Origin: a bacterium
Lineage (GTDB): Bacteria; Patescibacteriota; Minisyncoccia; Sungbacterales; SURF-37
Length of the DNA stretch: 64,000 nucleotides
Assembly (NCBI GenBank): GCA_030648055.1
Contig: JAUSHI010000009.1
Coordinates: 112,769-176,768 of the forward strand
Direction of reading: 5' to 3'
Shown here in pieces: positions 2,982-50,871 of the stretch. The translations under genes and the position numbers were made by a program. The number at the start of each line of letters is the position of its first letter. Position 1 is the stretch's first letter. The notes under the pieces were generated by a model that saw nothing but the letters and a program-made list of their open reading frames with translations, did not search any database and had not been told where the DNA came from.

Positions 2982-2984
2982 AAT

Positions 2985-3906: not shown

Positions 3907-4982
3907 TGAAAGATTTTTCGTTTCCTATTTTTAAAACCAAAATTCCGGGGGTCTCCGGACGTTTTATGCTTGAAGACCCGGTAGAGCGCCGGAAATACTT
4001 TGACGCCAAAGCCGGGCCAGAGATTGAAAAGTTGCGCGGGTATTTAGAAAAAAACACCTTTTTAGGATTTATGCTTGGCCCGAAAAACTCCGGCAAGGGC
4101 ACGTATGTAAAACTTTTTATGGAGGCCGTGGGAGGAGACCGGGTGGCCCATCTCTCGGTCGGAGATATTGTACGAAATGTTCACAAAGAGTTAGTGGATG
4201 AAAAGAAAAAGAAAGAGTTAGTTGGGTTTTTGCAAAAACGATATCGGGGCTTTATTACCATTGATAAAGCCTTAAACATTATCTTGGGGCGCGACACCAA
4301 GACTCTGCTTCCCACCGAAATTATTTTAGCGCTGGCAGAGCGGGAAATAGACCGCATCGGTAAAAAAGCGATTTTTATTGACGGGTTTCCAAGGAACTTG
4401 GATCAAGTTTCTTACTCGCTTTATTTCAGGGCGCTTATCGGCTATAGGGACGACCCCGATTTTTTTGTGTTTATAGATGTTCCCGAGGCGGTAATTGATG
4501 AGCGCATGAAAACTCGCGTGGTCTGCCCGCAGTGTCAAAGCCCCAGGAATATCAAACTTCTTCGTACCAAAGAGGTTGGTTATGATTCCGCGACAAAACA
4601 ATTTTATCTCATTTGTGATAATCCGAATTGCCCCGGGTATGGGAAGGACCGCATGATTTCCAAAGAAGGGGATGAGCTCGGCATAGAGGCGGTTCGCGAC
4701 CGTATTGAAGTTGACAGAAAAGTGGCGCGTACACTTATTGACCTTAAGGGCGTGCCTCAAATATTTTTGCGAAATTCTATTCCCATTGCCGAGGCCAAAG
4801 AATATGTTGATGATTATGAGATTACACCGGCGTATCTATATGAGCTGGAGGAGGGCAAGGTTAATGTTATTGAGGAGCCGTGGACAGTAACGGATGATGA
4901 AGGCAATCTTTCGTATAGTTTGCTTCCGGTGCCGGTTGCGCTTGCTTTAATAAAAGAAACCGTTCGTGCGCTTAATCTTTAG
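3906..4982 (+). CDS. adk: Adenylate kinase-like NMP kinase, unusually long (358 aa)
   Basis: P-loop GPKNSGKGT, GDIVR, IDGFPRNLDQ, and a Cys4 LID (CPQC..CDNPNC). Has ~55-aa N-terminal and ~90-aa C-terminal extensions. Not in the usual secY-adk-map position. Confidence 0.6.
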   Translation: MKDFSFPIFKTKIPGVSGRFMLEDPVERRKYFDAKAGPEIEKLRGYLEKNTFLGFMLGPKNSGKGTYVKLFMEAVGGDRVAHLSVGDIVRNVHKELVDEKKKKELVGFLQKRYRGFITIDKALNIILGRDTKTLLPTEIILALAEREIDRIGKKAIFIDGFPRNLDQVSYSLYFRALIGYRDDPDFFVFIDVPEAVIDERMKTRVVCPQCQSPRNIKLLRTKEVGYDSATKQFYLICDNPNCPGYGKDRMISKEGDELGIEAVRDRIEVDRKVARTLIDLKGVPQIFLRNSIPIAEAKEYVDDYEITPAYLYELEEGKVNVIEEPWTVTDDEGNLSYSLLPVPVALALIKETVRALNL

Positions 4983-5016
4983 GGTATTTTTTTAGGCAGA
5001 ATGTATCAAAATTACG

Positions 5017-5040
5017 TTAAATATGCTATAGCATATTTAA
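5017..5040. promoter_or_regulatory. Perfect 24-bp palindrome upstream of the Nudix gene (operator-like)
   Basis: TTAAATATGCTA|TAGCATATTTAA lies ~100 nt upstream of ATG 5141. Its arms resemble the family H hairpins. Confidence 0.35.
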
Positions 5041-5140
5041 TGTGATTCTGGTTGCGGCTCATATGGTTGACCACCGCGAAGTGGAGTGCTAAGGTTGGAG
5101 CAATATAAATTCTTCGGTCTTTGAAAACGAGGAGGGTGTC

Positions 5141-5692
5141 ATGACGGATGAACGCCATGAACAAGAACTTGGGCGGTGCACCATTGTGGTTACCTGTGCG
5201 GTGTTTCGCCGAACCCACAGTGGACTGGAAACACTAATTCTGAAACGCTCCGAAACGGAAGGCGAGGGACCGGGCCTTTGGACGGTTCCCGGAGGGAAGC
5301 TACAGCTTTGCGATCTCGGGGAAAAGGTTTCGGGCGCGTCCTCGCATAACGTCTGGATGGACGTTTTGAATCGTGCGATCTTGCGTGAGATCAGGGAAGA
5401 AACTGGTATTTTGGAGCGCGAGATCCATCCCATACTTCTCCCGTCCAGAGAAAAAATTTTCATCCGCAAGGACGGCACGCCAACGCTTGTTTTCGTTTTT
5501 TGGACTTTGAGTTATTACGGCACTGAAGTGCGGCTTGGGGAAGGCGCTACCGAGCATCGGTGGGTACGCGAGGGAGAGCTTGACGGGTACACGTTCATTG
5601 GGAACGTGAAAGACGACATTAGGGCGGCGTTCCAAGCATTTTGGGAAAGCGAGCGGGAGCTGAATCGCCCGTTTACTTGCGAGAAGGACTAA
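5141..5692 (+). CDS. Nudix hydrolase
   Basis: Nudix box remnant GGK..(insertion)..REIREETGI. GAGGAGGG RBS upstream. Confidence 0.75.
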   Translation: MTDERHEQELGRCTIVVTCAVFRRTHSGLETLILKRSETEGEGPGLWTVPGGKLQLCDLGEKVSGASSHNVWMDVLNRAILREIREETGILEREIHPILLPSREKIFIRKDGTPTLVFVFWTLSYYGTEVRLGEGATEHRWVREGELDGYTFIGNVKDDIRAAFQAFWESERELNRPFTCEKD

Positions 5693-5710
5693 TAAAAATA
5701 GACATAAAAA

Positions 5711-5735
5711 CCGAAGAGCATACTTCGGTTTTTTT
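5711..5735 (+). terminator. Rho-independent terminator
   Basis: CCGAAG-agcata-CTTCGG followed by TTTTTTT. Confidence 0.7.
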
Positions 5736-5768
5736 CATCCACAGCCCCTCTTCTGTTTTTTAAAATTA

Positions 5769-5777
5769 TGTTATAAT
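5769..5777 (+). promoter_or_regulatory. Extended -10 promoter element (TGtTATAAT)
   Basis: Consensus TATAAT with an upstream TG. Would give a ~215-nt leader before ATG 5999. Confidence 0.4.
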
Positions 5778-5998
5778 TAATGTAGCCCCGAATAAATCGG
5801 AATCACGCTTTAGGTCAAGCAATTTATTTTAGGGAGTCCTACATTCTTTCTGCCCTTGGGCAGACGGTGCGGATACCCACTTATATTTTTGCTGAAGCCA
5901 GTTCTGATCCTCGGGGCTTTTGTGTTGCAAAAAAATACCCCTTTGTTACTATGGGGGCGTTCGTTAATAAACAAAGAATAGGAAAAGGAGGAGAGGCC

Positions 5999-6709
5999 AT
6001 GCCATACGTTCCGAGCAAGAAAACTGACGGGAAATCAATTGATCGCGAGGTCCTTGATGTGGCGGTTGAGGATTTGGCGCAGAAAGCGGCCGGCGAGATA
6101 ACCAACAACGCATCTTTGAAAAAAGTCTATAGGTTCATCTTTGTTAGAGTTGCAAGCGATGTACATACGATGCTTACCAGCCCCAGTGTGGTTGCGTCTT
6201 GTGAGGATCCCGAATGGGATCTAGCCAAAGCGATTTATGAAACCGGTGCTAAGTATGAATATGAAGGCGCATTTCTTGGCGAGTTCAACTACGCTTTTAC
6301 CCGTTTCATCCAGAGAGTCCCCCAGGTCAAGGTTCAGTGGGGCGCTTGGAAAATGACCGACGAGTTGCGCTATTGGTTGTATGCCGAAACTGTTGCGGCT
6401 CTGGTTTATGCCTCGCGGCATACGGAAGACTTGGACATCGCCGTTGACGGAGTGTTTATTGACATCAAGGATGAATACAAATGGCGCGTGAACAGGTCTT
6501 ACGAGACCGCGCAGATTATCAAGAGCGGGGACTGCTACGATACGCCGCATTACAATAAGCCGGTTGAGGTAGTTGATGAAAAAGGTAATCATGTGGGCCA
6601 TGTTTACGTTGACTTGAAGCGAAGCGAAGAAACGCTTCACGTTGACGTGCTACCCGGTCGCTTTGTTCTTTGTTCCAAAGTTGAAACTGACTATAAAAAT
6701 ATTGGATGA
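5999..6709 (+). CDS. Conserved hypothetical protein
   Basis: ATG 5999 (M45 of the track ORF) is preceded by AAGGAGGAG. Begins MPYVPSKK; contains GEFNYAFTRFI. No function recognised. Confidence 0.6.
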   Translation: MPYVPSKKTDGKSIDREVLDVAVEDLAQKAAGEITNNASLKKVYRFIFVRVASDVHTMLTSPSVVASCEDPEWDLAKAIYETGAKYEYEGAFLGEFNYAFTRFIQRVPQVKVQWGAWKMTDELRYWLYAETVAALVYASRHTEDLDIAVDGVFIDIKDEYKWRVNRSYETAQIIKSGDCYDTPHYNKPVEVVDEKGNHVGHVYVDLKRSEETLHVDVLPGRFVLCSKVETDYKNIG

Positions 6710-9097: not shown

Positions 9098-9202
9098 AGA
9101 CACCCTTAAATGCTGTATTACAGAAACATGTTATCTCCCTTGAAAAAAAAGATTAATTGTGGTATGGGTGAAATAGTGTTGTTCGTTCACAATGAGGGAA
9201 AG

Positions 9203-10210
9203 ATGGCGAAGATTGTTATTGATACAAAAAAATGTATTGCGCTTACGGAACACATAAAAGAGTTTGGCGGCGTGCCTCCGGATGTGGAGGACCCGCTTCC
9301 ATACGCGTTTCCTGGGCATGTGGCGCATAACGGCTGGTGGGCGATGGTTGCCATCAATCAGCAGACCACACCCGTGGTCGGACAGGCGCTCAAAGGATTT
9401 GTAAAAGGGAGGCCGCTTCGCGGCTGGGACTATCTATTGCAGAAAGCGATCTACGAGACGACGCGACAAAGCGATATGTTTACCCGTGAGTGGCTTTGTG
9501 GTATTACGCCGGAGTGTTTGAAAGAGCTTTATTACGATGATGTAGAGGGCGACACGCTTTCTCAAGTGGAAGTTCGCGCCTCACTTCTTCAGGACCTCGG
9601 GCGTTTCCTTGAGCGTCACAATTGGACTTCAGTGCATGAGGCCTATCTCGCGTCCGAAGGATATATTCTGCGAAGCGACGGCAATGGCCTCGCGCAGATT
9701 CTTGCCGAGACTAAGGCTTATCAAGACCCGGTGCAGAAGAAACTTTTTTATCTTCTCGCTATTATGCGGAATCAAAAGTTTTGGGAGTACGTTGACAGCA
9801 TTTATCTTTCCTCGCCGGTTAACTACCATGAACAGCGTTTGCATCTGCGGCTTGGAACAGTACGTCTGCTTGATGCCTCGCTTGAGCGGAAGATTCGGGC
9901 GCGAGAAAACATTACCGACCAGGAAGATATTGAAATCCGTTTTGCTGTCAGAAAAGCCATTGAGTTCATAGCCCAGCTTCTTGATGTCACGCCGTCCATG
10001 ATGCATTACTTTCTTTGGAACCACGCCAGAAATTGTTGTAGCAGAGACAATCCGCATTGTGAAGGATGCGGAACGGACTGCAAGTTGCCGGAACGTTACC
10101 GTCTTGCGCCGTATCATAATTGCATTTTCAGACAAGTATGCCCCAGTGCGGGGGATCCGCCCTCATCCATGTTTATTGAGCCGCGAGTTGATACCACTAT
10201 TTGGCAATAA
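9203..10210 (+). CDS. HhH-GPD/AGOG/Qng1(DUF2419)-like N-glycosidase-like protein with a C-terminal Cys cluster, paralogue 1
   Basis: PVNYHEQRLHLRLGTV..EDIEIRFAVRKAIEFI resembles the DUF2419/AGOG pattern. C-terminal CSRDNPHCEGCGTDC..NCIFRQVC gives C-x6-C-x2-C. ATG 9203 has a GAGGGAAAG RBS. Confidence 0.5.
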   Translation: MAKIVIDTKKCIALTEHIKEFGGVPPDVEDPLPYAFPGHVAHNGWWAMVAINQQTTPVVGQALKGFVKGRPLRGWDYLLQKAIYETTRQSDMFTREWLCGITPECLKELYYDDVEGDTLSQVEVRASLLQDLGRFLERHNWTSVHEAYLASEGYILRSDGNGLAQILAETKAYQDPVQKKLFYLLAIMRNQKFWEYVDSIYLSSPVNYHEQRLHLRLGTVRLLDASLERKIRARENITDQEDIEIRFAVRKAIEFIAQLLDVTPSMMHYFLWNHARNCCSRDNPHCEGCGTDCKLPERYRLAPYHNCIFRQVCPSAGDPPSSMFIEPRVDTTIWQ

Positions 10211-10246: not shown

Positions 10247-10478
10247 ATCGCTCACAACCAAGCTCATTATTCTTAAATTACGTTTTAACTGGCTATAGCT
10301 TACTAAAACATGTTATTTGCAATAGCCACTGAATATTAAAAAACGTTATGGAAACCCAAGGATCGGATACGCGACAAAAAACCATTGAACCATTACCCGT
10401 CTTAATTGCTTCACCGAGGTTTCTGTGATAAGAAATAGTAATGTTCGTTTACATAGTAGAGAAAGGAGTTTTTGGCAT

Positions 10479-11504
10479 ATGGTGGCCCTTGATCATGTAC
10501 GGTGTCGCGCGCTCGGTAAATTCTTCAAAGAACTTCGGTTTCCGGAGGCGGCCAAAATTGATCCGCCGGGAGATCTGTCGGGGCCAGACCTTCGCATGCT
10601 TTATTTTATTGTGGTGGCGATTTGCCATCAGACGAGTCCTATTGGCAAGCCGCGGCTTGCGGGCATGGTCAATGGGCGGCTTCTTTTCGGATGGGACTAC
10701 TTGTGTGCCTCCTGGTTAGCTGCGGCAAAAGCCGACCCATCAATTCTTACTCCCGGGTGGCTGATGTTTACCCAAGCAAGCGATATCATCTATCTGCTTT
10801 ATGATAGTCACCGGCATTGTGGGTCGCATATTACAGATTCCGAGGGGCGGGCCAAGCTTCTGCGCGATATCGGATTTCGGATGTACTGCGACGGGGTTGG
10901 GCACATTGATGAATATTACAAAAAGGCCGATGGGTACCTTTTGGACGTTTGGTTTAGCCCCAGTGTCCATACGCCAGGGCTTGAATCGTTGTTCTCTAAG
11001 TTTGAAGCCTACGGAAAAGACCCGGTAAAGAAGAAGCTAACTTATTTTCTTACTTTGATGAATCGCTACGGCTTTTGGCGGTATCGTGATATTCATCATC
11101 TTGGTGTTCCGGTTGATTATCACGAGGTGCGTTTGCATTTGCGCCTTGGGACGGTCAAAATTACGGATACGGCGCTTGCAGCAAAAGTTGCGGCATGTAC
11201 GGTGCTGAATGCCGAGGAAGATGTTTGTATCCGTAGCGCGACCCATCGGGCAATTGTTGAAATCTCCGAGTTTTCAGGACGAATGCCGGCAGACATTCAT
11301 AATTTCTTTTGGAACATGGCGCGGAATTGTTGTATGAGAGATAAAACACATTGCGCGGAGTGCGGAAGCCACAGCGCGCTTCCGGAACGTTACGCGGGAT
11401 TGCTTGCCGAAGGGCGATGTGTCTTTGCTAACCATTGTGCGAGCGTTTCGTTGGCGCACTCTGAAAAACCGAAAGAGCCTGTTGTTGATACCGATTTTTA
11501 TTAA
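10479..11504 (+). CDS. HhH-GPD/AGOG/Qng1-like N-glycosidase-like protein with a Cys cluster, paralogue 2
   Basis: Collinear with 9203..10210: PVDYHEVRLHLRLGTV, FFWNMARNCCMRDKTHCAECG..RCVFANHC. ATG 10479 follows AAAGGAG. Confidence 0.5.
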   Translation: MVALDHVRCRALGKFFKELRFPEAAKIDPPGDLSGPDLRMLYFIVVAICHQTSPIGKPRLAGMVNGRLLFGWDYLCASWLAAAKADPSILTPGWLMFTQASDIIYLLYDSHRHCGSHITDSEGRAKLLRDIGFRMYCDGVGHIDEYYKKADGYLLDVWFSPSVHTPGLESLFSKFEAYGKDPVKKKLTYFLTLMNRYGFWRYRDIHHLGVPVDYHEVRLHLRLGTVKITDTALAAKVAACTVLNAEEDVCIRSATHRAIVEISEFSGRMPADIHNFFWNMARNCCMRDKTHCAECGSHSALPERYAGLLAEGRCVFANHCASVSLAHSEKPKEPVVDTDFY

Positions 11505-29856: not shown

Positions 29857-31122
29857 ATGTTTCAAAAACTTTTGTTGATGTTTAAGCTTCCGGATTTGCG
29901 CAAAAAGATTTTTTTTGTGCTTGGGGTTCTTTTGGTGTTTCGCTTGGTCGCCGCGATCCCAGTGCCGGGGGTTGATCCCATAAGACTTAAAGCTTTTCTC
30001 GCTGGAAATCAATTTTTCGGTCTTTTGGATATTTTTTCCGGAGGCGTACTTGGTAATCTTTCCATCGTAATGCTTGGCGTTGGCCCTTACATCACCGCGT
30101 CCATTATCATGCAGCTTTTGACCATGCTTTTCCCGTCGCTTAAAGAAATGTACCAGGAGGAGGGTGAGGCGGGGCGCCAAAGGTTTAATCAATACTCCCG
30201 TCTTCTTACCGTGCCGCTTGCCCTGCTTCAGGGTTACGGGCTTTTGATCATTCTTGTCCGCCAGCAAATTATTCCCCAGCTTGGGTTTTTTGGTTTTGCA
30301 ACCAACTTGATTATTGTGACCGCCGGGACTCTCTTTCTTATGTGGCTCGGTGAGCTTATTTCTGAAAAAGGCATTGGCAACGGTATTTCTCTTTTGATTT
30401 TTGCCGGTATTGTCTCAAGAATCCCCATTGATCTTCGGCAGACTCTTTTTACTTTTGACTTTTCACAGCTTCCGTCCTACCTTGCTTTTTTGGCGGTCTC
30501 ACTCGTTGTTATCGCGGGTGTTGTGGTAATCACGGAAGGTCAGAGAAATATTCCCGTCTCCTACGCAAAGCGTATTCGCGGAAATCGCGTATACGGCGGA
30601 GTTTCAACCCATCTTCCGCTTCGCGTTAATCAGGCCGGAGTTATTCCGATTATCTTCGCGGTCTCGCTTATTCTTTTCCCGGGCCTCATTGGCAACTTTT
30701 TAGCAGTTGTTCCGAATCCCGCCGTGCAGTCTATTTCGCGCTTTTTGATTGAGCTTTTGAACAATCAGTTGCTTTACGGGTCTTTTTATTTTCTGCTTGT
30801 TTTTGCTTTTACTTATTTTTACACCGCGGTTACTTTTGATCCCCAGGCGATTGCCGATAATCTTCAAAAGCAGGGCGGTTTTATTCTCGGCATACGGCCC
30901 GGCAGGCCAACCGCTGAATATCTTTATCGCATTCTTAATCGTATTACGCTTGCCGGAGGACTTTTTTTGGGCGTAATCGCCGTCTTGCCTCTTATCGTGC
31001 AATACGCTTTCGGTCTTCGGACCCTGACCATCGGCGGCACCTCGCTTCTTATCGTGGTGTCTGTGCTTCTTGAGACAATGAAACAGATTGATGCCCAGTT
31101 GGTGATGCATGAATATGAGTGA
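29857..31122 (+). CDS. secY: Preprotein translocase subunit SecY
   Basis: 421 aa, 10-TM pattern. GVGPYITASIIMQLL, WLGELISEKGIGNGISL motifs. Confidence 0.96.
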   Translation: MFQKLLLMFKLPDLRKKIFFVLGVLLVFRLVAAIPVPGVDPIRLKAFLAGNQFFGLLDIFSGGVLGNLSIVMLGVGPYITASIIMQLLTMLFPSLKEMYQEEGEAGRQRFNQYSRLLTVPLALLQGYGLLIILVRQQIIPQLGFFGFATNLIIVTAGTLFLMWLGELISEKGIGNGISLLIFAGIVSRIPIDLRQTLFTFDFSQLPSYLAFLAVSLVVIAGVVVITEGQRNIPVSYAKRIRGNRVYGGVSTHLPLRVNQAGVIPIIFAVSLILFPGLIGNFLAVVPNPAVQSISRFLIELLNNQLLYGSFYFLLVFAFTYFYTAVTFDPQAIADNLQKQGGFILGIRPGRPTAEYLYRILNRITLAGGLFLGVIAVLPLIVQYAFGLRTLTIGGTSLLIVVSVLLETMKQIDAQLVMHEYE

Positions 31123-31207
31123 TGTCCCGATAAAAATTGAATTTGCAATTTTTATCGAGGATCCTCGATTTCGCTACGCCACTTTTTGTGGCGGCGAAAT
31201 CGGGACA
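31123..31207 (+). repeat. Palindromic MITE-like element, family B copy 1
   Basis: 9-bp perfect TIR TGTCCCGAT/ATCGGGACA. Three internal hairpins including the central palindrome ATCGAGGATCCTCGAT (31154..31169). CATGAATATGA occurs on both sides. Confidence 0.7.
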
Positions 31208-31244
31208 TGAATATGAATAGCTTTGTCGGGTTACGGTTTTAGAT

Positions 31245-31276
31245 AAAAAAATCGCGCCTGGGTTAGCGCGATTTTC
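31245..31276. terminator. Bidirectional terminator
   Basis: A-run, ATCGCGC-ctgggtta-GCGCGAT, T-run. Overlaps the stop of the minus-strand kinase gene. Confidence 0.6.
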
Positions 31277-31925
31277 TTTTGAGCCCCAGAGATGAAAGAA
31301 TTTCTTTTAGCTTTTTGTGAACTGGTTCTTTGTCGTCGTAGTTATTGGTGATGACGAAGGGCGCCTTGCTTATTATCCAGTTAACTTCGCGTTCAATGGG
31401 TGAGTGTTCGCCGGTCCCCCTTTTTCTGTCCCCCATAAATTCATTGAAAGTCATTTTTCCTTCATCGCGTTTTTGGGTTTTGTGAGCGGCATCTTTAAGC
31501 GCGCGCGCGTATCGGACTTTGGGGTCGGCCGTGACGCAGATGAGGATTCCTTTTCTCTTTTCCACGAACGCGCGGTATTCTTCTTTGGTGCGGATGGCTT
31601 CAACAAGCGCGATTTTCGGTTTTTCCGTATCCAGCATGTGGGCAACTCTTCGCATATACGCGGATTCACCAAGAAGCGGATAGAGGAGTTTGTTTACGCC
31701 GAAAAGCGCGTGGTAAACCCTGCGGTCGGCTTCCAGGCCCAAGATTTTAGCGATAAGCATGGGCGCGTCAGCAATGCGAAGATGCTTTACGCTTTTGTAG
31801 TTTCTGACAATATATTCCACGGCCACATCCTTTCCCGCTTTACGCGGACCGGCAACTGCGATAATTTTTATTTTCTGGCGTTTCCAGCTGGAAATGGCCC
31901 TGTTGAGTTCTGATTTGGTAAGCAT
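31263..31925 (-). CDS. T4 gp1-like deoxynucleoside-monophosphate kinase family P-loop protein
   Basis: IIAVAGPRKAGKDVAVEYIVRNYKSVKHL parallels T4 dNMP kinase LSGVKRSGKDTTADFIMSNYSAVKY. The C-terminal FVITNNYD..KLKEIL parallels LVITNDGS..KIKNTL (from memory). Confidence 0.55.
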   Translation of the reverse strand: MLTKSELNRAISSWKRQKIKIIAVAGPRKAGKDVAVEYIVRNYKSVKHLRIADAPMLIAKILGLEADRRVYHALFGVNKLLYPLLGESAYMRRVAHMLDTEKPKIALVEAIRTKEEYRAFVEKRKGILICVTADPKVRYARALKDAAHKTQKRDEGKMTFNEFMGDRKRGTGEHSPIEREVNWIISKAPFVITNNYDDKEPVHKKLKEILSSLGLKRKSR

Positions 31926-31990
31926 AAGATATTCCTTTATTATTAATCTTAGACGGGTCGGTTGTAAATACCCACTGAAAGCATAAGTAA

Positions 31991-32764
31991 ATGATCATCA
32001 AAAACGAAAAAGAGCTCTCAATCCTTCGCGAATGCGGCAGAAAACTTGCCATGATTTTGGGTGTGGTGGAAAAAGCCGTCAAGCCCGGAGTTACGACTAA
32101 AGAGCTTGATGATTTGAGCGAAAAATTAATCCGCGACTCGGGCGGCGAGCCTGTGTTTAAAGGTTATCGCACGCTTCGCGGTGAGCCACCATTTCCCTGT
32201 TCTCTTTGTACCTCTGTCAATGATGAGGTGGTGCATGGCATTCCTTCCGGAAGCCGTGTTTTGAAAGAAGGCGATATTGTCGGTCTTGATATCGGCATGC
32301 GCTGGCCCGCTAAAGACGGTTTTATAACCGATATGGCGGTAACGGTGGGTGTGGGCAAGATTTCCCAAAAAGCTGAACGCCTTATCGCTGTAACCAAGGA
32401 TTCATTTGAAAAGGGTATCGCGGTGTTGGCACCCGGCATTCGGCTGGGCGATCTCGGCGCGGTTATTCAGAATCAATTGGAAAAAAACGGCTATGGAGTA
32501 ATTCGCGATCTTGCCGGGCATGGCGTGGGCAGGAAACTTCATGAAGAACCTTTTGTTCCAAATTACGGCAAGCGCGGAGCAGGGCCTGTTGTGCTTGAGG
32601 GCACGGTGCTTGCCATTGAACCGATGGCCACCGAGGGCGACTGGCATGTTGTGCTTGATAAGGATGGTTGGACATTTAAGACGCGCGATGGAAAATTGGC
32701 AGCGCATTTTGAGCATACTGTTGTTGTGACAAAGGATGGCGCGAAAGTTTTGACAACAATCTGA
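31991..32764 (+). CDS. map: Methionine aminopeptidase, type I
   Basis: 257 aa. VHGIP, DIVGLDIG, GHGVG, EPM, HFEHTV metal-ligand motifs. Confidence 0.95.
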   Translation: MIIKNEKELSILRECGRKLAMILGVVEKAVKPGVTTKELDDLSEKLIRDSGGEPVFKGYRTLRGEPPFPCSLCTSVNDEVVHGIPSGSRVLKEGDIVGLDIGMRWPAKDGFITDMAVTVGVGKISQKAERLIAVTKDSFEKGIAVLAPGIRLGDLGAVIQNQLEKNGYGVIRDLAGHGVGRKLHEEPFVPNYGKRGAGPVVLEGTVLAIEPMATEGDWHVVLDKDGWTFKTRDGKLAAHFEHTVVVTKDGAKVLTTI

Positions 32765-41586: not shown

Positions 41587-43494
41587 ATGGAACACGGTTT
41601 TCTCAAAGAAAAATATGGCCTCCACAAGAGCCAGGAGGTTGAGCGGGCAGCGGAACGTACAGAACAGCGCACAGGCGAAAAAGTGCCCCAAGACCCCGAA
41701 GCTCGCATTCAGAACTACCTTGACCGCTTGCAGAATATCATAAATCCCCCTAAATTAGAGGGTCATTCCGGCTTTGACAGGCGTGAACGAAACCTTGAAA
41801 TGATCAAGCGCGGTCTCTATAACAAATTCGTCATCAAGCCCGAAGATATCCCCGAACAATACTTTGATAACCAGCGCCGCCTCGCAAGAGAACAGGGCCA
41901 TGGCGACATTGAAATCACCCGAGAGACGCGCGACCAGTTTTCCGAAGTCATCGTTACCGATCAACGAAATTCGCTCAATAACTGGGTGGACTATCTTGCC
42001 TCTCCCGATGCCGCCTATCCCGATTGGCTGAAGTACTGGACGATCCGAAGCATGCTCGGCATTGGCGAATACGACAAAGAAAAGAAAGCGTTTGCTAAGC
42101 GGTCAAAAGGAACTACCAAACCGTTCCCCGACATCAACCGCGAGGCGCTCGCATATGTCCTTGATGCCGTTTCGCAAAAATACGGCAAGCGGCATATGGA
42201 ACTTCTGGCGCTCGACGAAGGAGAGAAAAAAGAATTCGAAAAACTCCTTCAAGGCGAGAATTTCGCGAAGCTATACGCCTGGGCGCTTGAGAAAACAGCC
42301 ATCGCGCCGACTGAATCCCTGGCGAAGACCGCCGGCAAGTGGGTGAAGTACTCCAGGGATTCCAACCGTTTACCGCTTGTCGAATCTCTCCGGGGCCACG
42401 GCACGGGCTGGTGCACGGCCGGAGAATCAACCGCCCAGATACAGCTCAAGGGAGGAGATTTTTACGTATACTATTCTTTTGATCAGAAAGGAGGGTCCAC
42501 CATACCGCGAGCCGCCATCCGCATGGAAGAAGACCGAATCGCCGAGGTGCGAGGCATCGGCGAACAACAGAATCTTGATTCCTACATTGCTCCGGTTGTT
42601 GAATCCAAGCTCAAGGAATTTTCTGATGGCGCCGCGTTTGAGAAGAAAACAGAAGACATGAAAATGCTCACGACGGTTGAACGGAAATCAAAAATAAACG
42701 AAACGCTAACCAAAGACGACCTCGTTTTTTTATACGAGATAAACGCGCCTATTGAGGGTTTCGGATACCAGCGAGACCCGAGAATCGCCGAATTGCGTTC
42801 ACAAAGGAACTCCGAGGAAGATATGGCGGTTGTTTTTGAGTGTGGCAAGGAGCAAATCGCGTATAATATTTTTGAAATTAAAGAAGGAACCATGGCTTAC
42901 GTCGGTCCGCTTGTCCCCGGCATTTTTGACAAAATCCAGAAATACGGCATTGAGCAAATATACACCTCCTTCCCCGCAGGCCGCATCCGCAAGGAAACTA
43001 TTGAAATCGGCGGCAAGAATGCCGCAACACTCATCAAGGAAATGCGTGATAAAATCAAGGAAATGCGTGATAAAAAAATCAACATCAGCGACTACGCGAT
43101 GGATATATTGAAAAGTAGAGAATTCACAACGCAGAAAGAAATAGAAGACGCCATACTTATCCGCCTCAAAGTCGGAGACCTGGGTTTCCCTAAAAACAAG
43201 TATCCGATAACGGACGAAATCTACAGGCGCATTGAAGAACTGGGATTGGAACTCTGCCCCGCGGAAATTGGGCCGCACTACCGTCTTAAATATTTGGATC
43301 AGCTGTTGGGCGAGTGGTTTCGGATTGGCATGAAGCAAATAACCGATCGCGTTGGCAGCCCGCGCGTCTTAAGCCTGGCACGGAGTGAGGACGGTTTGTG
43401 GCTGGACGACCTTTGGACGTATCCGGGCGATGAGTGGGCTCCCAGCCGTGGGTTTGTCTTTCGTCTCCGCAAGTTGAAAAACTTGGAAACTTAG
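41587..43494 (+). CDS. Large orphan protein (635 aa) carried on the ndh-3' insertion
   Basis: Long uninterrupted ORF with no motif recognised. Contains a perfect 2 x 21-bp in-frame tandem duplication at 43033..43074 (IKEMRDK twice). Confidence 0.7.
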   Translation: MEHGFLKEKYGLHKSQEVERAAERTEQRTGEKVPQDPEARIQNYLDRLQNIINPPKLEGHSGFDRRERNLEMIKRGLYNKFVIKPEDIPEQYFDNQRRLAREQGHGDIEITRETRDQFSEVIVTDQRNSLNNWVDYLASPDAAYPDWLKYWTIRSMLGIGEYDKEKKAFAKRSKGTTKPFPDINREALAYVLDAVSQKYGKRHMELLALDEGEKKEFEKLLQGENFAKLYAWALEKTAIAPTESLAKTAGKWVKYSRDSNRLPLVESLRGHGTGWCTAGESTAQIQLKGGDFYVYYSFDQKGGSTIPRAAIRMEEDRIAEVRGIGEQQNLDSYIAPVVESKLKEFSDGAAFEKKTEDMKMLTTVERKSKINETLTKDDLVFLYEINAPIEGFGYQRDPRIAELRSQRNSEEDMAVVFECGKEQIAYNIFEIKEGTMAYVGPLVPGIFDKIQKYGIEQIYTSFPAGRIRKETIEIGGKNAATLIKEMRDKIKEMRDKKINISDYAMDILKSREFTTQKEIEDAILIRLKVGDLGFPKNKYPITDEIYRRIEELGLELCPAEIGPHYRLKYLDQLLGEWFRIGMKQITDRVGSPRVLSLARSEDGLWLDDLWTYPGDEWAPSRGFVFRLRKLKNLET

Positions 43495-46021: not shown

Positions 46022-47053
46022 TCATACTTTAATTTTTCGCAAAAATTTCGCGGCTTTTTCGGGGGCGATTGTGGATATATCAATGCCGGTTGATATTTCA
46101 AAGCCGGCCCAAATGGCGGTTTTTGGGATGATCTCAAGGTGCCAGTGATAGTGGTTAAATTCGGCCGTGGATGTTACCGGAGAAGTATGGATGAAAAAAT
46201 TATGGTCGGGGTTGCCAAGTCCTTTATAGAGTTTGGCTAAAGCTGTTTTTAGTGCGTCAGCGATCGCCGGCAAGTCGTCGTCCTCGCTTATTTCAAACCG
46301 GGGATTGTGGCGTTTTGGAAAAATGTGCACCTCAAATGCGGCTCTTGAAACGAAGGGGCAGAAAACAATGAAATCATTATTTTCATAAACTATGCGTCTT
46401 TTGTCCTTCATTTCAAAATCTATCATAACGCAGTGCACGCAGGCGTTTTTATGGGTGCGGGCGAAAAGTGCGGAGCCTTTTAAACTGCGTGAAATATCCG
46501 GAGGAATGACCGGGGTCGCGATAAGCTGTGAGTGGGGATGAAAAACACTGGCCCCCGCGCTCGGTCCGTGATTGTGGAATATGGATATGTATTCAACGCA
46601 GTCTTCGTCTTTTAGGGATTTGTAGCGCTCGCGGTAACTTTTAATTATGCTTTCAACTTCACGCTGAGTCATTTCCGCTATCGGGCGGGTATGATTGCGG
46701 GAAATTATTACCTCATGAAAGCCGACGCCATCCATCCAAGAGTGCGGACCAAGTTTTCGCTCCACTTGGCATATCCCTTTGTCAAAAGCCGGATATTTAT
46801 TGGGTACGACCTGCACAAACCAGTTTTTTTTTAGATAAGGCAGATCTTTTTTTGTTAATCGGTAAGATTCGTTTTTTCGGTCAATTATTAAAAGAGCGTT
46901 TTTCATCAGCTCTTCAAAACGGCAATTTTCTTTTGGCGGGATTGTCTTTTTTTCTTTGCGGGCAAACGCTTGCGGCCGTTTTGCCCGTCCGGTAGCGATT
47001 AGAACCCAGGCGCCGGTGACCGGGTCCTGCCTTAGTTCGGAGCTCTTCTTCAT
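46022..47053 (-). CDS. galT: Galactose-1-phosphate uridylyltransferase-like HIT-family enzyme
   Basis: 343 aa. Active-site FHPHSQL; RCPFC replaced by NCRFE context. Two HIT-like halves. Confidence 0.75.
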   Translation of the reverse strand: MKKSSELRQDPVTGAWVLIATGRAKRPQAFARKEKKTIPPKENCRFEELMKNALLIIDRKNESYRLTKKDLPYLKKNWFVQVVPNKYPAFDKGICQVERKLGPHSWMDGVGFHEVIISRNHTRPIAEMTQREVESIIKSYRERYKSLKDEDCVEYISIFHNHGPSAGASVFHPHSQLIATPVIPPDISRSLKGSALFARTHKNACVHCVMIDFEMKDKRRIVYENNDFIVFCPFVSRAAFEVHIFPKRHNPRFEISEDDDLPAIADALKTALAKLYKGLGNPDHNFFIHTSPVTSTAEFNHYHWHLEIIPKTAIWAGFEISTGIDISTIAPEKAAKFLRKIKV

Positions 47054-47060
47054 GCGAATT

Positions 47061-47792
47061 TTATTTTTTAAATTTATATTTCCCGCTGATAAAATTCCAT
47101 CTTATGTGAAAGACATCAAGAAAAACATTGAGATAGGCCTTGAGTGTTACCTTGCTGTCCGCTTCAAAGTGCCAACGCACCGGAATTATCGCCATTTTAA
47201 ATCCGAGCCTTTTTGCGAGCGCCAAGATTTCTATATCAAAAGCGAAGCCGGGTATGAGTTGCATCGAAAAAATAGCTTCGGCGGCTTTTTTGGTGAAGGC
47301 CTTAAAACCGTTTTGCGTGTCCCAAATGCCCCATACTCCGAAAATTTGAATGATAAGATTTCCTAATCTTCCCAGAATTTCCCTGTACCACGGCTCTTTG
47401 ACATCCCGGGCGGCGCCTTTGGCGTCTTTGGGGTCGCGCGAGCTGATTACGATGTCATGGCCCTTTTCAAAAAAAGGAATCATTTGGTCAAAATAATTCG
47501 GCACGGTTGAATTATCGGCGTCGGAAAAAAGACGGATGTCTCCTTGAGCGGCAAGCATTCCGACTTTCACCGCGTTACCTTTTCCTCTGTTTTCTATCTC
47601 TATAAGGCGCACATTTCCGAATTCCGCGGTGATTTTATTGATTATTTCCCTGGTTTTGTCTTTGGACGCGCTGTCGGCGATTAGAATTTCGTAGGAAAAA
47701 TTTTTTGTTTTAAGATAGGCCTCAACCTCGCGGAGCGTTTTTTCAATTCGTTTTTCTTCGTTATAGGTAGGTATTATCCAGGAAAGATGCAT
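47061..47792 (-). CDS. Family 2 glycosyltransferase (dolichyl/polyprenyl-phosphate glycosyltransferase-like)
   Basis: IIPTYNEEKRI, ADSASKD, DADNS motifs. Confidence 0.85.
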   Translation of the reverse strand: MHLSWIIPTYNEEKRIEKTLREVEAYLKTKNFSYEILIADSASKDKTREIINKITAEFGNVRLIEIENRGKGNAVKVGMLAAQGDIRLFSDADNSTVPNYFDQMIPFFEKGHDIVISSRDPKDAKGAARDVKEPWYREILGRLGNLIIQIFGVWGIWDTQNGFKAFTKKAAEAIFSMQLIPGFAFDIEILALAKRLGFKMAIIPVRWHFEADSKVTLKAYLNVFLDVFHIRWNFISGKYKFKK

Positions 47793-48063
47793 GTCAGTTT
47801 TATTTATGAGCGTAGTTAATAACTACCCGCCCGCCTTGAGTTCGCCATTTTATGGAATTATATGTTATTTTTACCATTGTATTGAACTAAGGATAACAAG
47901 TGATTTCCAGCAAGCACTCAAGGCGAAGTCGGGCGCGGTAAAATTGAGCACCTCGCCCCTTAAGCAACTCAAATTATTTTCATCTTTTTTATAAAGTTTT
48001 TCCATAATAACAATTATTATAATTCCAGCAACATAGAGGGTGGGGTAAAGACATTGTCAAAAT
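47793..48063 (-). repeat. Family A-like element, divergent and 5'-truncated copy A4 (ruvX|GT2 junction, minus strand)
   Basis: Minus strand reads TAA-ATTTTGACAATGTCTTTACCCCACCCTCTATG..GCTTAAGGGGCGAGGTGCTCAATTTTACC..GCTCATAAATAAAACTGAC-ATG. In-frame ORF at 47871..48005. Confidence 0.6.
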
Positions 48064-48465
48064 TTATTTAGAAGGTAAATTTTGACCACGCTCTTTGTCC
48101 AAATATGATTGCAAAATTATCGCCGCCGATGCCTTATCAAGATTTTCGGCGGAAATCCCGTTTCGCACGGCCATTTTTGTAGTCAGCACTTCATTTTCAA
48201 ATTCTATCGGCAAGTTTATTTCTTTTTTGAGCAACGAGGCGAATTTTTTTACTTCAAGCAGTTGTTTTGATTCTCCGCCGCCGAAGGGGATAGGGAGGCC
48301 GATGATTATTTTTCCTATTTTTTCTTTTTCAATAGTTTCTTTAAGGGCTGTTATAAGTTTTTCTGAGCCGGGTATGGTTTTGTGCGGAAAGGCGATACTC
48401 CCTCCTTCGTCTGAAATAGAGAGGCCGGTTCGTTTTTTTCCGTAATCAATACCGAGATACCTCAT
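48064..48465 (-). CDS. ruvX: Holliday-junction-resolvase-like / pre-16S rRNA nuclease YqgF
   Basis: MRYLGIDYGKKRTGLSISD start, 133 aa. Confidence 0.9.
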   Translation of the reverse strand: MRYLGIDYGKKRTGLSISDEGGSIAFPHKTIPGSEKLITALKETIEKEKIGKIIIGLPIPFGGGESKQLLEVKKFASLLKKEINLPIEFENEVLTTKMAVRNGISAENLDKASAAIILQSYLDKERGQNLPSK

Positions 48466-48920
48466 ACCAGGCGTTTTAAAAGCTCTTTCGGCGTTTCAAC
48501 TATTTCATGCACTAATTTTCTTGAAGAGGGTTCTTCGTATAAGTCTTTCGGGTAGTGGCCCATGAGTGTTTTGGGGTGCAAGGCGTAGATGGTTTTTCCA
48601 AGAGCCGCGGCCGCGAAAAGTTCGCCGTTGGTATTGGCACCCAGATATCCATCTTTATTGAAGATGAAGCAGACATCCGCTACCCGGACCTTGCGGAAAA
48701 GGTGGTCGTAAACCCTGCCGGCAACGGTCATTTTGTATGTTTCATCCTGCATCCGGTCTTTTTCATGCTGGTTTTCAAAATGAGGCGGCTTGGCTTCAAA
48801 TTCGGGGTCAAAAATAGTAAGATGAATGTTGCGCTTTGCGGCAAGACCGCGAAGGTCGTGGATGAAGCGGTCCATGTCTTTTCTAAAGCGCTGGCTTGAA
48901 CAAAATACTACGCTCTTCAT
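48462..48920 (-). CDS. Nucleoside 2-deoxyribosyltransferase-like (NDT/Rcl-fold) protein, paralogue a
   Basis: MKSVVFCSSQRFR.., VADVCFIFNKDGYLGANTNGEL. Clear paralogue of 50446..50871. 4-nt overlap with ruvX. Confidence 0.55.
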   Translation of the reverse strand: MKSVVFCSSQRFRKDMDRFIHDLRGLAAKRNIHLTIFDPEFEAKPPHFENQHEKDRMQDETYKMTVAGRVYDHLFRKVRVADVCFIFNKDGYLGANTNGELFAAAALGKTIYALHPKTLMGHYPKDLYEEPSSRKLVHEIVETPKELLKRLV

Positions 48921-48984
48921 GTCTTTATTATAACATCGCCCCTTTTATAATAACAAATCCGACAGGTGTTCTGTCGGATAAATA

Positions 48985-49746
48985 TTAGTGACTGATTTTG
49001 AAAAGCCGGCCGGCCGTCTTTGTGTTGATTTTTCTTGCGGCAAGAAGTTTCTTGGTCCACAATTCAAAAAATAGTTTTCCAAAAATCGGGAATTCGTTCA
49101 TGGAAAGAATGCGCGGCAGATCTTTCTTGAGTGCGATGATTACGTCCTCGGCGCTATGATAGATGTTTTTGCGCCGCAGGATTTTTCGTCCGTTAAAATG
49201 CATGGCAACAATCACATGGCGCGACGGATAGCGTTTGATGACGTCTTCCGGCGCAAAGAGGTAGTTGGGAATACCCGCCATATCAATGTAGGCCAACTCA
49301 AAGGCCGAACCGCCGGAAACTTTAAGCTCCGCGAAATGGCTGATTATGACCACCCGGTCATTGGGACCGAAGCGGAACAAGGTGCGTAATTCTGCGAGCC
49401 AGATGGGCATGAAATAGCCGGATAGTTCGCGGATTTTCATTTTCTCCTGCAACTTTCGCAAGAGCGGCTGTAGGAGGTCCATACGGGATCGCGCGACTTT
49501 CTCATCAAGCCGAGTAGGATCAACAATGCGTGGATCTACTCCTAATTTTTCAAATTCTCCGCGCACATTTTCAATTATTTCAGTAATACCTTTGCGCCAG
49601 CGCCTGCCATAGTCGCCGTACATTCCCTTTTTCTTTTTGTCTATTTTTTGAATACGGTAGAGGTTCTGGATTGAGCCCAGGAGGTATATATGAAGACGCA
49701 CGGGCTTTTTGCCGTCCTTGTTTTTACGGCTATTTCGTCTGCTCAT
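48985..49746 (-). CDS. Hypothetical protein with an NDT-like core
   Basis: 253 aa. LHIYLLGSIQN and IISHFAELKVSGGSAFELAYIDMAGIP resemble the NDT-fold pattern. Basic N-terminus. Confidence 0.4.
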   Translation of the reverse strand: MSRRNSRKNKDGKKPVRLHIYLLGSIQNLYRIQKIDKKKKGMYGDYGRRWRKGITEIIENVRGEFEKLGVDPRIVDPTRLDEKVARSRMDLLQPLLRKLQEKMKIRELSGYFMPIWLAELRTLFRFGPNDRVVIISHFAELKVSGGSAFELAYIDMAGIPNYLFAPEDVIKRYPSRHVIVAMHFNGRKILRRKNIYHSAEDVIIALKKDLPRILSMNEFPIFGKLFFELWTKKLLAARKINTKTAGRLFKISH

Positions 49747-49919
49747 TGTCTTCGCCCCTTTTTATGTTTTGCGCCTTTGAGGCAGAACCGATTTTTAAAA
49801 AGCTCGTGCCTTATTTGTAGCGCATAGGCTCTCTCGTGTAAAGCGGTTTTTTACGCAAAATAAAAACGGCGCCGAAGCGTCGTTTATTGCCCTTTTTAGT
49901 ATTAGCACAATTTGTTAAG

Positions 49920-50432
49920 TTAAATTTCCCGTAAGCGCTTTAAAAAATTGTACCATACTGGTTCAAGTCCGGGCGAGGATTGCCATTCAGCGTCGGCGGA
50001 GAACGCGGAGGTGAGCGTGGAAAGGTCGTAGAGCGGTATTTTGTGCTTCGCAGAAAATTCTTCAGTGCGGCGCGCCAGAGCGGAAAGCCGTTCAGGTGTG
50101 GCCCATTCAGCTGATTTGGTTTCGTCTTCGGCGCGTTTTAATTCGCCGCTCCACTCGCTCGCGCGGAATATTTCCCATTGATGATGTGTTCCTTCATCTC
50201 TGCGGCAGGGGTTGGGCGTTTCAGCGCTGAATAAGTGTTCCATGTTTGAGGTAGCGATTCCGGTTTCTTCCATAAGTTCTCTTTTTGCTCCGTCGCGGAA
50301 CGAATCGCCATCAAGGTGTCCGGCCGGAAGCGCAAATCCCGCGGGAAATTTTTTTCTCTCAATTATTAAAGTACGGCCGCCTTTCTGGACGAGGATGCCG
50401 ACGCTTTTATGGTCGCATACTTTGTCGGACAT
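49920..50432 (-). CDS. Nudix hydrolase
   Basis: Nudix box GHLDGDSFRDGAKRELMEETGI. Confidence 0.8.
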   Translation of the reverse strand: MSDKVCDHKSVGILVQKGGRTLIIERKKFPAGFALPAGHLDGDSFRDGAKRELMEETGIATSNMEHLFSAETPNPCRRDEGTHHQWEIFRASEWSGELKRAEDETKSAEWATPERLSALARRTEEFSAKHKIPLYDLSTLTSAFSADAEWQSSPGLEPVWYNFLKRLREI

Positions 50433-50445
50433 TTTTTCCTCCTTA

Positions 50446-50871
50446 TTAAATTAGGCGCTTTACCAAATCTTCCGGTTTTTCAATAATTTCCGTAAAAAGA
50501 ATATCGCGGCAAATTTCTCCGCCCTGGCCTACTGGTTTTTCCATCTCAAGCGCGTAGATGACCATGTTTTTGCCGTGCGCGAATCCGAGTTCAAGGGTGG
50601 TGTTGATGCCAAGGTAGCCCTGCTTGTTATAAATGTAGCAGACGTCGGCTTTTCTGATGTGGTCAAAATGTTCGTGTACCATTGCTGGCACGCGGTCGCG
50701 GTATGATTTTGACGCCAGCCGGTCCTTTTCAGTTTTGGTAAGCATAGCTTTTCTTTGGCGCTCAAAATTGGGTTCAAATACAACGGGGACGCCAAGCTTG
50801 CGAAGTTTTATAGCAAAGCCCCGGATTTCTTCTCTATATCGCTGAGAACCGCAAATAACCACGGATTTCAT
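50446..50871 (-). CDS. Nucleoside 2-deoxyribosyltransferase-like (NDT/Rcl-fold) protein, paralogue b
   Basis: MKSVVICGSQRYR.., KADVCYIYNKQGYLGINTTLELGFAHGK, ..PEDLVKRLI. Confidence 0.55.
   Translation of the reverse strand: MKSVVICGSQRYREEIRGFAIKLRKLGVPVVFEPNFERQRKAMLTKTEKDRLASKSYRDRVPAMVHEHFDHIRKADVCYIYNKQGYLGINTTLELGFAHGKNMVIYALEMEKPVGQGGEICRDILFTEIIEKPEDLVKRLI

Follow-up and report, generated by a model that had tools for sequence, protein, structure and literature searches.

Here we describe a 220-aa protein, named KIN, encoded in a Candidatus Sungbacteria (CPR/Parcubacteria) MAG within a 64-kb window, the whole stretch of DNA that was analyzed. Our findings favor, at a probability of about 0.6, a model where KIN is a nucleotide kinase of cellular origin and vertical descent, with a probable role in dNMP salvage, which moved into the slot between secY and map. 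Few gene orders in bacteria are as conserved as the secY-adk-map junction; judged from sequence and gene order, KIN is probably a (d)NMP kinase that displaced the slot adk in one lineage. The exchange of adk for a member of another kinase family, in both orientations and among closely related genomes, provides a clean natural case of positional gene displacement.

The KIN gene and its flanking sequences

KIN is encoded by an intact, ATG-started open reading frame (table 1). A sequence-only reading of this DNA had described a 220-aa P-loop gene on the opposite strand, convergent to secY, and had quoted an N-terminal P-loop (GPRKAGKD) and a C-terminal FVITNNYD...KLKEIL; the frame and both motifs were verified. 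The gene is real and conserved, with 31 homologues at 45-71% identity keeping the key residues. A Shine-Dalgarno-like AAGGA is found 5' of the ATG, and a site in the divergent gap toward map appears, from its consensus match alone, to be a putative KIN promoter. Base composition is near that of the host (GC 0.48 in KIN vs 0.45 in the window) and codon usage is typical.

The whole gap between secY and KIN measures 140 bp, holds no ORF, and contains an 87-nt nested double hairpin plus a terminator hairpin (fold z = -5.75). The terminator hairpin probably serves secY and KIN in both directions, as had been proposed, its A-run and T-run fitting such a role. The sequence following secY had, on the other hand, been taken for a mobile element, where we find three single-copy hairpins and none of the hallmarks of an element. 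Repeat and pattern searches found no second copy of the gap sequence in the window, none of the 35 fetched loci that form our comparison set (L001-L035) has it, and no inverted repeats were found flanking KIN. The corresponding gap of L004, a close relative, spans 30 bp and is devoid of the double hairpin, and an Rfam scan returned sub-threshold Leu-leader and SAM-II noise and nothing more. A mobile element or MITE was thus rejected for a gap that is short, without ORF, single-copy, and without repeats around KIN, and the proposal that an adjacent element drove the rearrangement fell with it.

Table 1. Features of the window that bear on KIN and the secY-map slot
Feature	Position	Strand	Evidence and remarks
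Adk-family gene, 358 aa	3906..4982	+	PF00406 44.7 bits; P-loop GPKNSGKGT, DGFPRN, Cys4 LID
secY	29857..31122	+	PF00344, E 4e-106; ends the rplO-secY run and converges on KIN
Nested double hairpin, 87 nt	31122..31208	+	Right after the secY stop codon; formerly read as a mobile element
Hairpin ATCGCGC / GCGCGAT	31245..31278		Inverted repeat and fold; flanked by A-run and T-run; probably a bidirectional terminator, overlapping the stop codon of KIN
KIN	31263..31925	-	ATG-started intact ORF, 220 aa, P-loop NMP-kinase-like
Promoter-like site of map	31915-31943		Consensus scan
Promoter-like -35/-10 of KIN	31939..31968	-	TTTACA-18-AATAAT, 10/12 consensus match, in the 65-bp divergent gap
map (methionine aminopeptidase)	31991..32764	+	PF00557, E 5e-43; divergent from KIN, 65 bp apart
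ruvX-GT2-galT	46022-48465		Fused in the window to the cluster in the next row
141-aa / NUDIX / 253-aa / 152-aa cluster	48462..50871	-	tblastn with neighbors in L002, L003, L007; Pfam

Fold and family relations of KIN

Single-sequence searches of Pfam, NCBIfam, and PDB with KIN were all sub-threshold and family profiles were required; among the curated families (Pfam, NCBIfam), KIN falls below the threshold of every one. Thus, no substrate can be transferred to KIN by homology. Its fold is clearer. On an AF2 model (pLDDT 90.8, pTM 0.87), with a strand order running from β1-P-loop-α1 onwards, KIN can confidently be assigned the P-loop NMP-kinase fold, the predicted structure displaying the features that define the superfamily: a core sheet of five parallel strands, Walker A, a helical segment for NMP binding, and a LID. 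Foldseek retrieved 204 PDB matches to the model at E <= 0.001, with NMP kinases leading: the best is 3lw7 (SSO1041, AMP-bound; TM 0.74), then AK1, UMP/CMP kinase, and DPCK, and in the viral library the matches are PMK- and dNMP-kinase-like proteins. Along the chain, Walker A reads G26-P-R-K-A-G31-K32-D33, R112 sits in the segment VEAIRTKEE, the LID region carries R138, R141, K152, D154, and E155, and N194 comes right after strand β5. G31 and K32 of Walker A, R112, R141, and other catalytic-type residues are invariant among the 31 homologues, and D33 is at least 90% conserved in the family.

This family comprises about 40 sequences; the named matches are all Sungbacteria, and all members were found on cellular (CPR) contigs. 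A profile search returned 811 representative clusters at E <= 1e-3 and only 4 at E < 1e-30, indicating that the family is small and discrete, and scores around the KIN clade drop from 280 to 85 bits. Beyond this gap, KIN aligns over its full length with cellular PRK08356/UPF0200-like kinases of about 185 aa (hhalign 99.9%, E 1e-34, 191 columns). All 41 members of the nearest outgroup match NF006226 (PRK08356), some of them fused to PyrE-like or DHFR domains; KIN itself scores 20.4 bits against the equivalog cut-off of 189, with its C-terminal half alone covered. These alignments suggest that KIN split off from the PRK08356/UPF0200-like kinases, a large branch of the P-loop NMP kinases, with T4 gp1 and animal phosphomevalonate kinase being more distant relatives. 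The best PDB sequence match of KIN (E 5e-5) also belongs here: Sulfolobus solfataricus SSO1041 (PDB 3lw7, 3h0k), deposited as an "adenylate kinase-related protein." KIN and these kinases have in common an R-Y-x-R LID motif, an AD-x-x-I-x-N strand, and the C-terminal helix, whereas KIN possesses an extra N-terminal helix of about 19 residues with a conserved Trp and, in the P-loop, GKD with two basic residues in place of GK[ST]. Literature searches for UPF0200, SSO1041, or PRK08356 found no report, and KIN would offer a first functional handle on this large unstudied family.

Gene order around secY and map

In five other Sungbacteria, whose SecY is 76-83% identical, secY is followed by adk and map, the Adk being a PF00406 protein of 194-205 aa (L015, L017, L018/L019, L020, and L021); these canonical loci confirm that KIN occupies the adk slot. 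No KIN is concealed in the adk-map gap of L021, which contains a NUDIX gene interrupted by Ns. No slot-type Adk (194-205-aa PF00406) was found within the 64 kb of the genome covered here, and one may lie outside this window. Bacterial Adk (PF00406) and KIN share this genomic position and the same overall P-loop NMP-kinase fold; yet neither GxGKGT nor DGFPR is present in KIN, which lies, in this window, on the opposite strand. Adenylate kinase profiles (PF00406, TIGR01351) gave no KIN match at E <= 10, and the possibility that KIN is a diverged slot Adk was discarded, hhalign yielding a probability of 36% to Sungbacteria slot Adk and of 99.9% to PRK08356-like kinases. The window does encode a 358-aa Adk-family protein, whose homologues at E <= 1e-10 exceed 4000 in number (66-100% identical among the best 120 listed), some of which share a contig with a slot adk. 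A relocated slot adk is not a suitable explanation for this gene either, given that its similarity to slot Adk is limited to the P-loop, that it is widespread, and that it coexists with slot adk. A literature search combining Sungbacteria and adenylate kinase returned no report.

The gene order of KIN is plastic. In L008, L012, and L027 the gene sits in the slot co-directional with secY and map, with overlapping junctions, and in the window, L004, and L022 it is inverted; this recurrence contradicts a one-off event. Nor is the inverted gene universal in the clade, the inversion being kept in a narrow subclade alone. In about 20 further loci (L001-L003, L005-L007, L009, L010, L013, L023, L024, L026, and L028-L035) KIN resides in a dNTP cluster together with Tmk, ThyX/ThyA, DHFR, NUDIX, an HD dNTP-hydrolase-like gene, and DUF6899. 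The NJ tree of KIN places the window clade (bootstrap 95) as sister to the L008 clade (bootstrap 78), with L012 unplaced, and the SecY tree neither supports nor contradicts monophyly of the genomes with KIN in the slot; both trees allow one or several moves of KIN into the slot, and either polarity of the inversion. The window retains a further trace of rearrangement. The 141-aa/NUDIX/253-aa/152-aa cluster flanks KIN in most other genomes and is found here without it, and ruvX-GT2-galT come after map in L015, L017, and L021. The position of ruvX-GT2-galT by the former neighbor of KIN rather than by map suggests that the dNTP cluster recombined with the terminal part of the spc operon. The 141-aa and 152-aa proteins of that cluster, paralogues and the usual neighbors of KIN, gave an AF2 pLDDT of 46 with two sequences as input; a profile search against PDB found no match, and the sole remaining match is PF05014 (E 0.037).

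As for the direction and order of these events, we infer that in one Sungbacteria lineage KIN would have moved into the secY-map slot through such a recombination, the short canonical Adk being lost there. In the subclade of the window, KIN lies reversed in the slot, apparently with a promoter of its own and a probable bidirectional terminator in common with secY.

Function of KIN and alternative explanations

KIN had been read as a dNMP kinase of the T4 gp1 family that came from a phage, the mobile element beside it accounting for insertion and inversion. The likeness to gp1 is genuine at the N-terminus: both proteins display the P-loop G-x-[KR]-[KR]-x-G-K-D (GVKRSGKD in gp1, GPRKAGKD in KIN) and the helix that follows, with 38% identity over 32 residues (hhalign E 1.5e-5, 32 columns), and the N-terminal 29-33 residues of KIN align to gp1 (PDB 1dek) at E 0.39 as a single sequence and E 0.035 as a family profile. 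PHROG 139 (dNMP kinase) is matched at E 4e-9, and one homologue (P0025) bears a precomputed PF21448 label. A generic NMP-kinase core is also common to both, as probably is a link to DNA-precursor metabolism, the substrates of gp1 being dGMP, dTMP, and hm-dCMP. However, the similarity ends after about 32 residues and is undetectable past KIN residue ~52 (gp1 has 241 aa, KIN 220); PF21448 (DNMK) scores 14.9 bits against a cut-off of 27.1, residues 20-52 covering profile positions 1-32 of 232; and the gp1 structures 1dek and 1del are not within the top 50 Foldseek PDB matches. Thus, of the two termini considered gp1-like, P-loop and helix 1 align, whereas the likeness of the C-terminus is generic to the kinase superfamily, its AD-x-x-I-x-N strand and terminal helix aligning to SSO1041 as well. 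Neither 50,697 phage genomes (tblastn, E <= 0.01) nor 2.9 M IMG/VR contigs contain a relative of KIN; its nearest relatives are cellular, its composition and codon usage are host-like, the supposed element was not found, and the arrangement is common to several genomes. The nucleotide-kinase-like nature of KIN, in the P-loop NMP-kinase family and with a gp1-type P-loop, was therefore upheld; its membership in the gp1 family and its phage origin were not, and a very improbable reading remains that is already largely refuted.

Were KIN to act on dephospho-CoA, or on some other small molecule such as phosphomevalonate, it would stand outside nucleotide metabolism altogether. Two outgroup members are named "dephospho-CoA kinase" by IMG, the outgroup weakly matches TIGR00152 (27/41) and PF01121 (6/41), DPCK structures occur among the Foldseek matches of KIN, and its P-loop is PMK-like, with a weak match to PF04275. 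Yet the outgroup matches lie far under the cut-offs, KIN matches neither CoaE (PF01121) nor TIGR00152 even at E <= 10, and animal-type PF04275 reaches 14.7 bits over 36 residues against a cut-off of 33.8. The best matches of KIN belong to an uncharacterized kinase family and not to CoaE, and its neighbors are consistently nucleotide-metabolism genes, with no CoA or mevalonate genes seen among them; we consider such an activity quite unlikely. Less likely still, KIN would bind nucleotides as a regulator or sensor and have no kinase turnover, comparable to the kinase-like N-terminal domain of anti-phage dCTP deaminases (NF041025). That domain and KIN fall within one broad kinase branch, and 29/41 outgroup members match it (best E 7e-15), KIN doing so weakly (E 0.049); but KIN stands alone without a deaminase domain, keeps the full conserved set of catalytic-type residues, and has housekeeping and salvage genes rather than defense genes around it, a PADLOC scan giving nothing meaningful. 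More weight, although still short of being likely, falls on an AMP/dAMP kinase that replaced the slot Adk in both job and position through in situ non-orthologous displacement. KIN lies exactly at the position of adk in five related genomes; its orientation in L008 and L012 is that of secY and map, with which its start and stop overlap, as expected of an operon member; no slot-type Adk was found in the 64-kb window; and the closest solved structure, 3lw7, was crystallized with AMP. Conversely, the well-conserved 358-aa Adk-family gene could supply Adk activity, other Sungbacteria have relatives of it alongside a slot adk, and most members of the KIN family reside in thymidylate/dNTP clusters away from secY. 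In a wider version, which we regard as equally doubtful, the near-universal spc-operon gene adk would have given way at its own locus, in one Sungbacteria lineage, to an unrelated branch of NMP kinases, with KIN performing a (d)AMP- or broad dNMP-kinase step: a broad activity would make the slot Adk dispensable, and the reversed copies would mark where the ribosomal-protein operon recombined with an island for dNTP salvage.

Returning to the preferred model of a cellular dNMP-salvage kinase, we infer its catalytic activity and substrate as follows. The P-loop (G-x-R-K-x-G-K-D) would bind ATP, placing K32 on the β/γ phosphates and having D33 instead of the usual Ser/Thr, and the acceptor (deoxy)nucleoside monophosphate would be held at the helical segment past strand 2 and by the invariant R112. 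The LID segment 134-175 (R138, R141, K152, D154, E155) would then close, and transfer of the γ-phosphate would yield the diphosphate, leading salvaged dNMPs into DNA-precursor pools. Counting against a dNMP substrate, the closest solved structure (3lw7) binds AMP and not a dNMP, and the thymidylate-gene neighborhood, as guilt by association, does not fix the substrate. With the activity being predicted, the practical weight of the finding is modest. CPR bacteria are presumed to rely on salvaged nucleotides; literature searches pairing dNMP kinase with CPR/Patescibacteria found no mention of such a kinase, and the lineage-specific KIN, in clusters with Tmk, ThyX, DHFR, NUDIX, and HD genes, is a candidate for a missing dNMP-to-dNDP step in these organisms.

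Occupancy of the secY-map slot

KIN, the 220-aa P-loop NMP-kinase-like protein encoded between secY and map, corresponds exactly to a database entry annotated as hypothetical protein (locus tag Q7R91_02665), encoded on a MAG contig of 245 kb. A ribosomal-protein run with rplO precedes secY, and gatB lies with map on the other side of KIN; as both secY and map read on the plus strand, KIN is convergent with the former and divergent from the latter, at distances of 140 and 65 bp between the window ORFs. An AAGGA motif precedes its ATG, its GC content is 0.48 vs 0.45 for the window, and its codon usage is ordinary for the host genome. The family alignment holds 31 homologues (45-71% identity, 29 invariant columns). 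An overlapping plus-strand ORF was rejected as a shadow ORF, because conservation among these homologues tracks the minus-strand KIN frame.

Features of the window around KIN, the long Adk-family gene and the usual KIN partners
Feature	Position	Strand	Remarks
Nucleotide-metabolism cluster	2157-6709		DUF1937/DUF4406, HAD hydrolase (-), long Adk, NUDIX, DUF6899
Long Adk-family gene	3906-4982	+	358 aa; PF00406, 44.7 bits; GPKNSGKGT, DGFPRN, Cys4 LID
ORF	9110-10210	+	366 aa; no Pfam family at thresholds used
ORF	10425-11504	+	359 aa; no Pfam family at thresholds used
secY	29857-31122	+	PF00344, E 4e-106
Nested hairpin pair	31122-31208		87 nt; starts on last base of secY stop codon
Third hairpin	31245-31278		flanked by A7 and T-rich runs; overlaps KIN stop codon
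KIN	31263-31925	-	220 codons, ATG start (ORF listing)
Shadow ORF	31404-31913	+	overlaps KIN
Promoter-like site	31968-31939	-	upstream of KIN; 10/12 consensus match
map	31991-32764	+	PF00557
ORF	41587-43494	+	635 aa; no Pfam family at thresholds used
ruvX, GT2, galT	48465-46022	-	directly downstream of 152-aa gene, 4-nt overlap
152-aa gene	48462-48920	-	usual KIN neighbour
ORF	48985-49746	-	253 aa; no Pfam family at thresholds used
NUDIX gene	49920-50432	-	usual KIN neighbour
141-aa gene	50446-50871	-	usual KIN neighbour

Five Sungbacteria loci (L015, from a 923-kb genome, L017, L018/L019, L020, and L021) carry a 194-205-aa PF00406 Adk between secY and map, which bears out the sequence-only reading that KIN stands in the adk position; the window SecY is 76-86% identical to SecYs from Candidatus Sungbacteria/Sungiibacteriota, which places the organism among the Sungbacteria (CPR, Parcubacteria), and tblastn with five slot Adks found no such gene in the 64-kb window. 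KIN is inverted in the slot of the window, L004 (71% identity), and L022 (69%), and co-directional in L008 (rplO>secY>KIN>map>gatB, where KIN overlaps both secY and map), in L012, and in L027, the last showing KIN>map only. Adk is displaced by KIN across a whole sublineage and in two orientations, a more interesting observation than a one-off. In a SecY tree all KIN-in-slot genomes group with three adk-in-slot genomes (200/200), the monophyly of the former being unsettled. Outside the slot, KIN occurs in one further context (L011/L025) and in about 20 loci, not all independent, where it is convergent with a conserved dNTP block (Tmk - ThyX or ThyA - DHFR - DUF6899 - 141-aa - NUDIX - 152-aa, or an HD dNTPase-like gene), with TsaD on its opposite side. 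In the KIN neighbor-joining tree, the clade of the window (bootstrap 95) and that of L008 (bootstrap 78) are sister groups and L012 is unplaced; the cluster sequences make up the remaining branches, basal ones included.

The window also encodes a long Adk-family protein, with extensions of ~55 N-terminal and ~80 C-terminal residues. It has >4000 homologues at E <= 1e-10, the best 120 of which are 66-100% identical and bear Sungbacteria, Wolfebacteria, Giovannonibacteria, and other Parcubacteria names. That it is the relocated slot gene was ruled out: one 130-kb contig holds both a long Adk and the SecY whose locus carries slot adk, so the long form is a standing paralogue. Within the same phylum it is far better conserved than the slot Adks, which share 37-59% identity among five while their SecYs share 73-87%. 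The main adenylate kinase of these bacteria may therefore be the long Adk; it plausibly covers the essential function, which would make the slot gene replaceable.

Several minor features accompany these loci. A NUDIX gene lies between slot adk and map in L018 (5980-6453), L019 (3810-4283), and L021 (~5850-6660), as if nucleotide-metabolism genes were drawn to this slot. The 1.4-kb secY-adk interval of L020 (4773-6156) has no ORF >72 aa and no Rfam match, unusual in such compact genomes. L008, L010, and L013 are labelled 'uncultured Candidatus Saccharibacteria bacterium', probably wrongly; the L008 SecY is 84% identical to that of the window and 87% to that of L012 (Sungiibacteriota). In L007 (6652-7227), L013 (13655-14224), and L030 (15023-15580), the neighbour of Tmk is a second PRK08356-like kinase of ~190 aa, which hhalign matches to the outgroup profile at 99.3%, so that KIN-bearing dNTP clusters hold up to three NMP-kinase-type genes; no orthologue of it was found in the window. 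DUF6899, seen in the window cluster with the long Adk, is a fixed member of KIN-bearing Tmk/ThyX clusters elsewhere.

Affiliation and predicted function of KIN

Single-sequence profile searches with KIN gave sub-threshold matches only (AAA_18, E 1e-3; PF21448 DNMK, E 0.02, residues 20-52 only; PF04275 PMK, E 0.029; NF006226 PRK08356, 20 bits vs a 189 cut-off); for PHROG 139 dNMP kinase, E was 4e-9. When the family profile was run exhaustively with HMMER against 1.84 billion representatives, just four clusters came up at E < 1e-30, the KIN family itself, before scores fell from ~230-280 to 85 bits, a drop that marks the family as discrete. Below it stand proteins of ~185 aa, in their hundreds, with alignments that run from end to end. 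Of 41 taken as an outgroup set, all match PRK08356 (NF006226), 29 the kinase-like domain of anti-phage dCTP deaminase, 27 (weakly) DPCK, and 11 DNMK; a few carry PyrE-like or DHFR fusions. Profile-profile comparison joined KIN to this set over 191 columns (probability 99.9%, E 1e-34); against the Sungbacteria slot Adks the probability was 36%, and T4 gp1 aligned over 32 columns only (80%; the gp1 sequence compared was 100% identical to T4 gene 1). These results make KIN a distinct offshoot of PRK08356/UPF0200-like kinases; within a known superfamily, the group forms a new subfamily that is uncurated and has an unusual genomic role.

A phage dNMP kinase of the gp1 type had been proposed instead, from both termini. 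The likeness to gp1 covers the first strand, P-loop, and helix 1 only, and the animal PMK P-loop likewise has the form G-x-[KR]-[KR]-x-G-K-D. A C-terminal resemblance (FVITNNYD...KLKEIL) does exist, but it is a generic one: Sulfolobus solfataricus SSO1041 aligns there equally well. Searched against PDB, the family profile matched 3lw7/3h0k (E 5e-5, residues 72-204) and gp1 (1dek; E 0.035, 29 N-terminal residues). The AF2 model (pLDDT 90.8, pTM 0.87) has the strand/helix order of a P-loop NMP kinase; its 204 Foldseek PDB matches at E <= 0.001 are led by 3lw7 (target TM 0.74), the AMP-bound SSO1041 labelled "adenylate kinase-related protein", followed by AK1, DPCK, and UMP/CMP kinase. The viral library gave, at similar scores, entries annotated as phosphomevalonate kinase or dNMP kinase. 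KIN had no tblastn match at E <= 0.01 in 50,697 phage genomes and no relatives in IMG/VR by pattern and tblastn scan, and PADLOC reported nothing noteworthy. On these results and the host-like GC and codon usage, KIN is not a phage gene of the gp1 family.

KIN has an intact NMP-kinase fold, a conserved Walker-A Lys, a conserved Arg (R112) at the acceptor-phosphate Arg position, and conserved Arg/Lys/Asp/Glu in the LID, and its neighbours are consistently nucleotide-metabolism genes. We infer a putative (d)NMP kinase that would transfer phosphate from ATP to (d)NMPs, deoxynucleotides being its likeliest substrates.

The secY-KIN gap and a proposed rearrangement

The secY-KIN gap folds at -63.4 kcal/mol (z = -5.75): the nested pair consists of an outer stem, ATGTCCCGAT / ATCGGGACAT, around two hairpins, and the third hairpin, by its flanks and its position over the KIN stop codon, upholds the bidirectional terminator proposed earlier. 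We read these hairpins as terminators or operon-end structures, and the KIN transcript would end at a hairpin common to secY and KIN. The mobile element also proposed after secY finds no counterpart: the 140 bp hold no ORF, repeat and pattern searches found one copy of the sequence in the window and none in 35/35 fetched loci, no inverted repeats bracket KIN, and Rfam gave sub-threshold noise only. In L004, the closest relative with identical gene order, the equivalent gap is just 30 bp. The DNA after secY in L012 is likewise hairpin-rich.

By tblastn, the usual partners of KIN are present in the window without it. The 152-aa gene abuts ruvX-GT2-galT, a block that usually follows map in slot-adk Sungbacteria loci (L015, L017, L018, and L021); the two "orphaned" ends are thus joined to one another, apparently as the reciprocal product of the event that placed KIN beside secY. 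Such joined ends would be expected if the end of the spc operon had recombined with the dNTP cluster, or if an inversion had occurred between the two, yet one inversion fails to give the exact gene order, so that several steps would be required. The 141-aa and 152-aa genes are paralogous (42% identity), and the window copies are 65-84% identical to orthologues in other Sungbacteria. Their AF2 model, from two sequences, reached a pLDDT of 46. Pfam, NCBIfam, and PDB gave no match for the pair; the sole lead is PF05014, nucleoside 2-deoxyribosyltransferase (E 0.037), together with a motif, N-T-x-G-E-L...G-K-x-I-Y-A, reminiscent of its clan.
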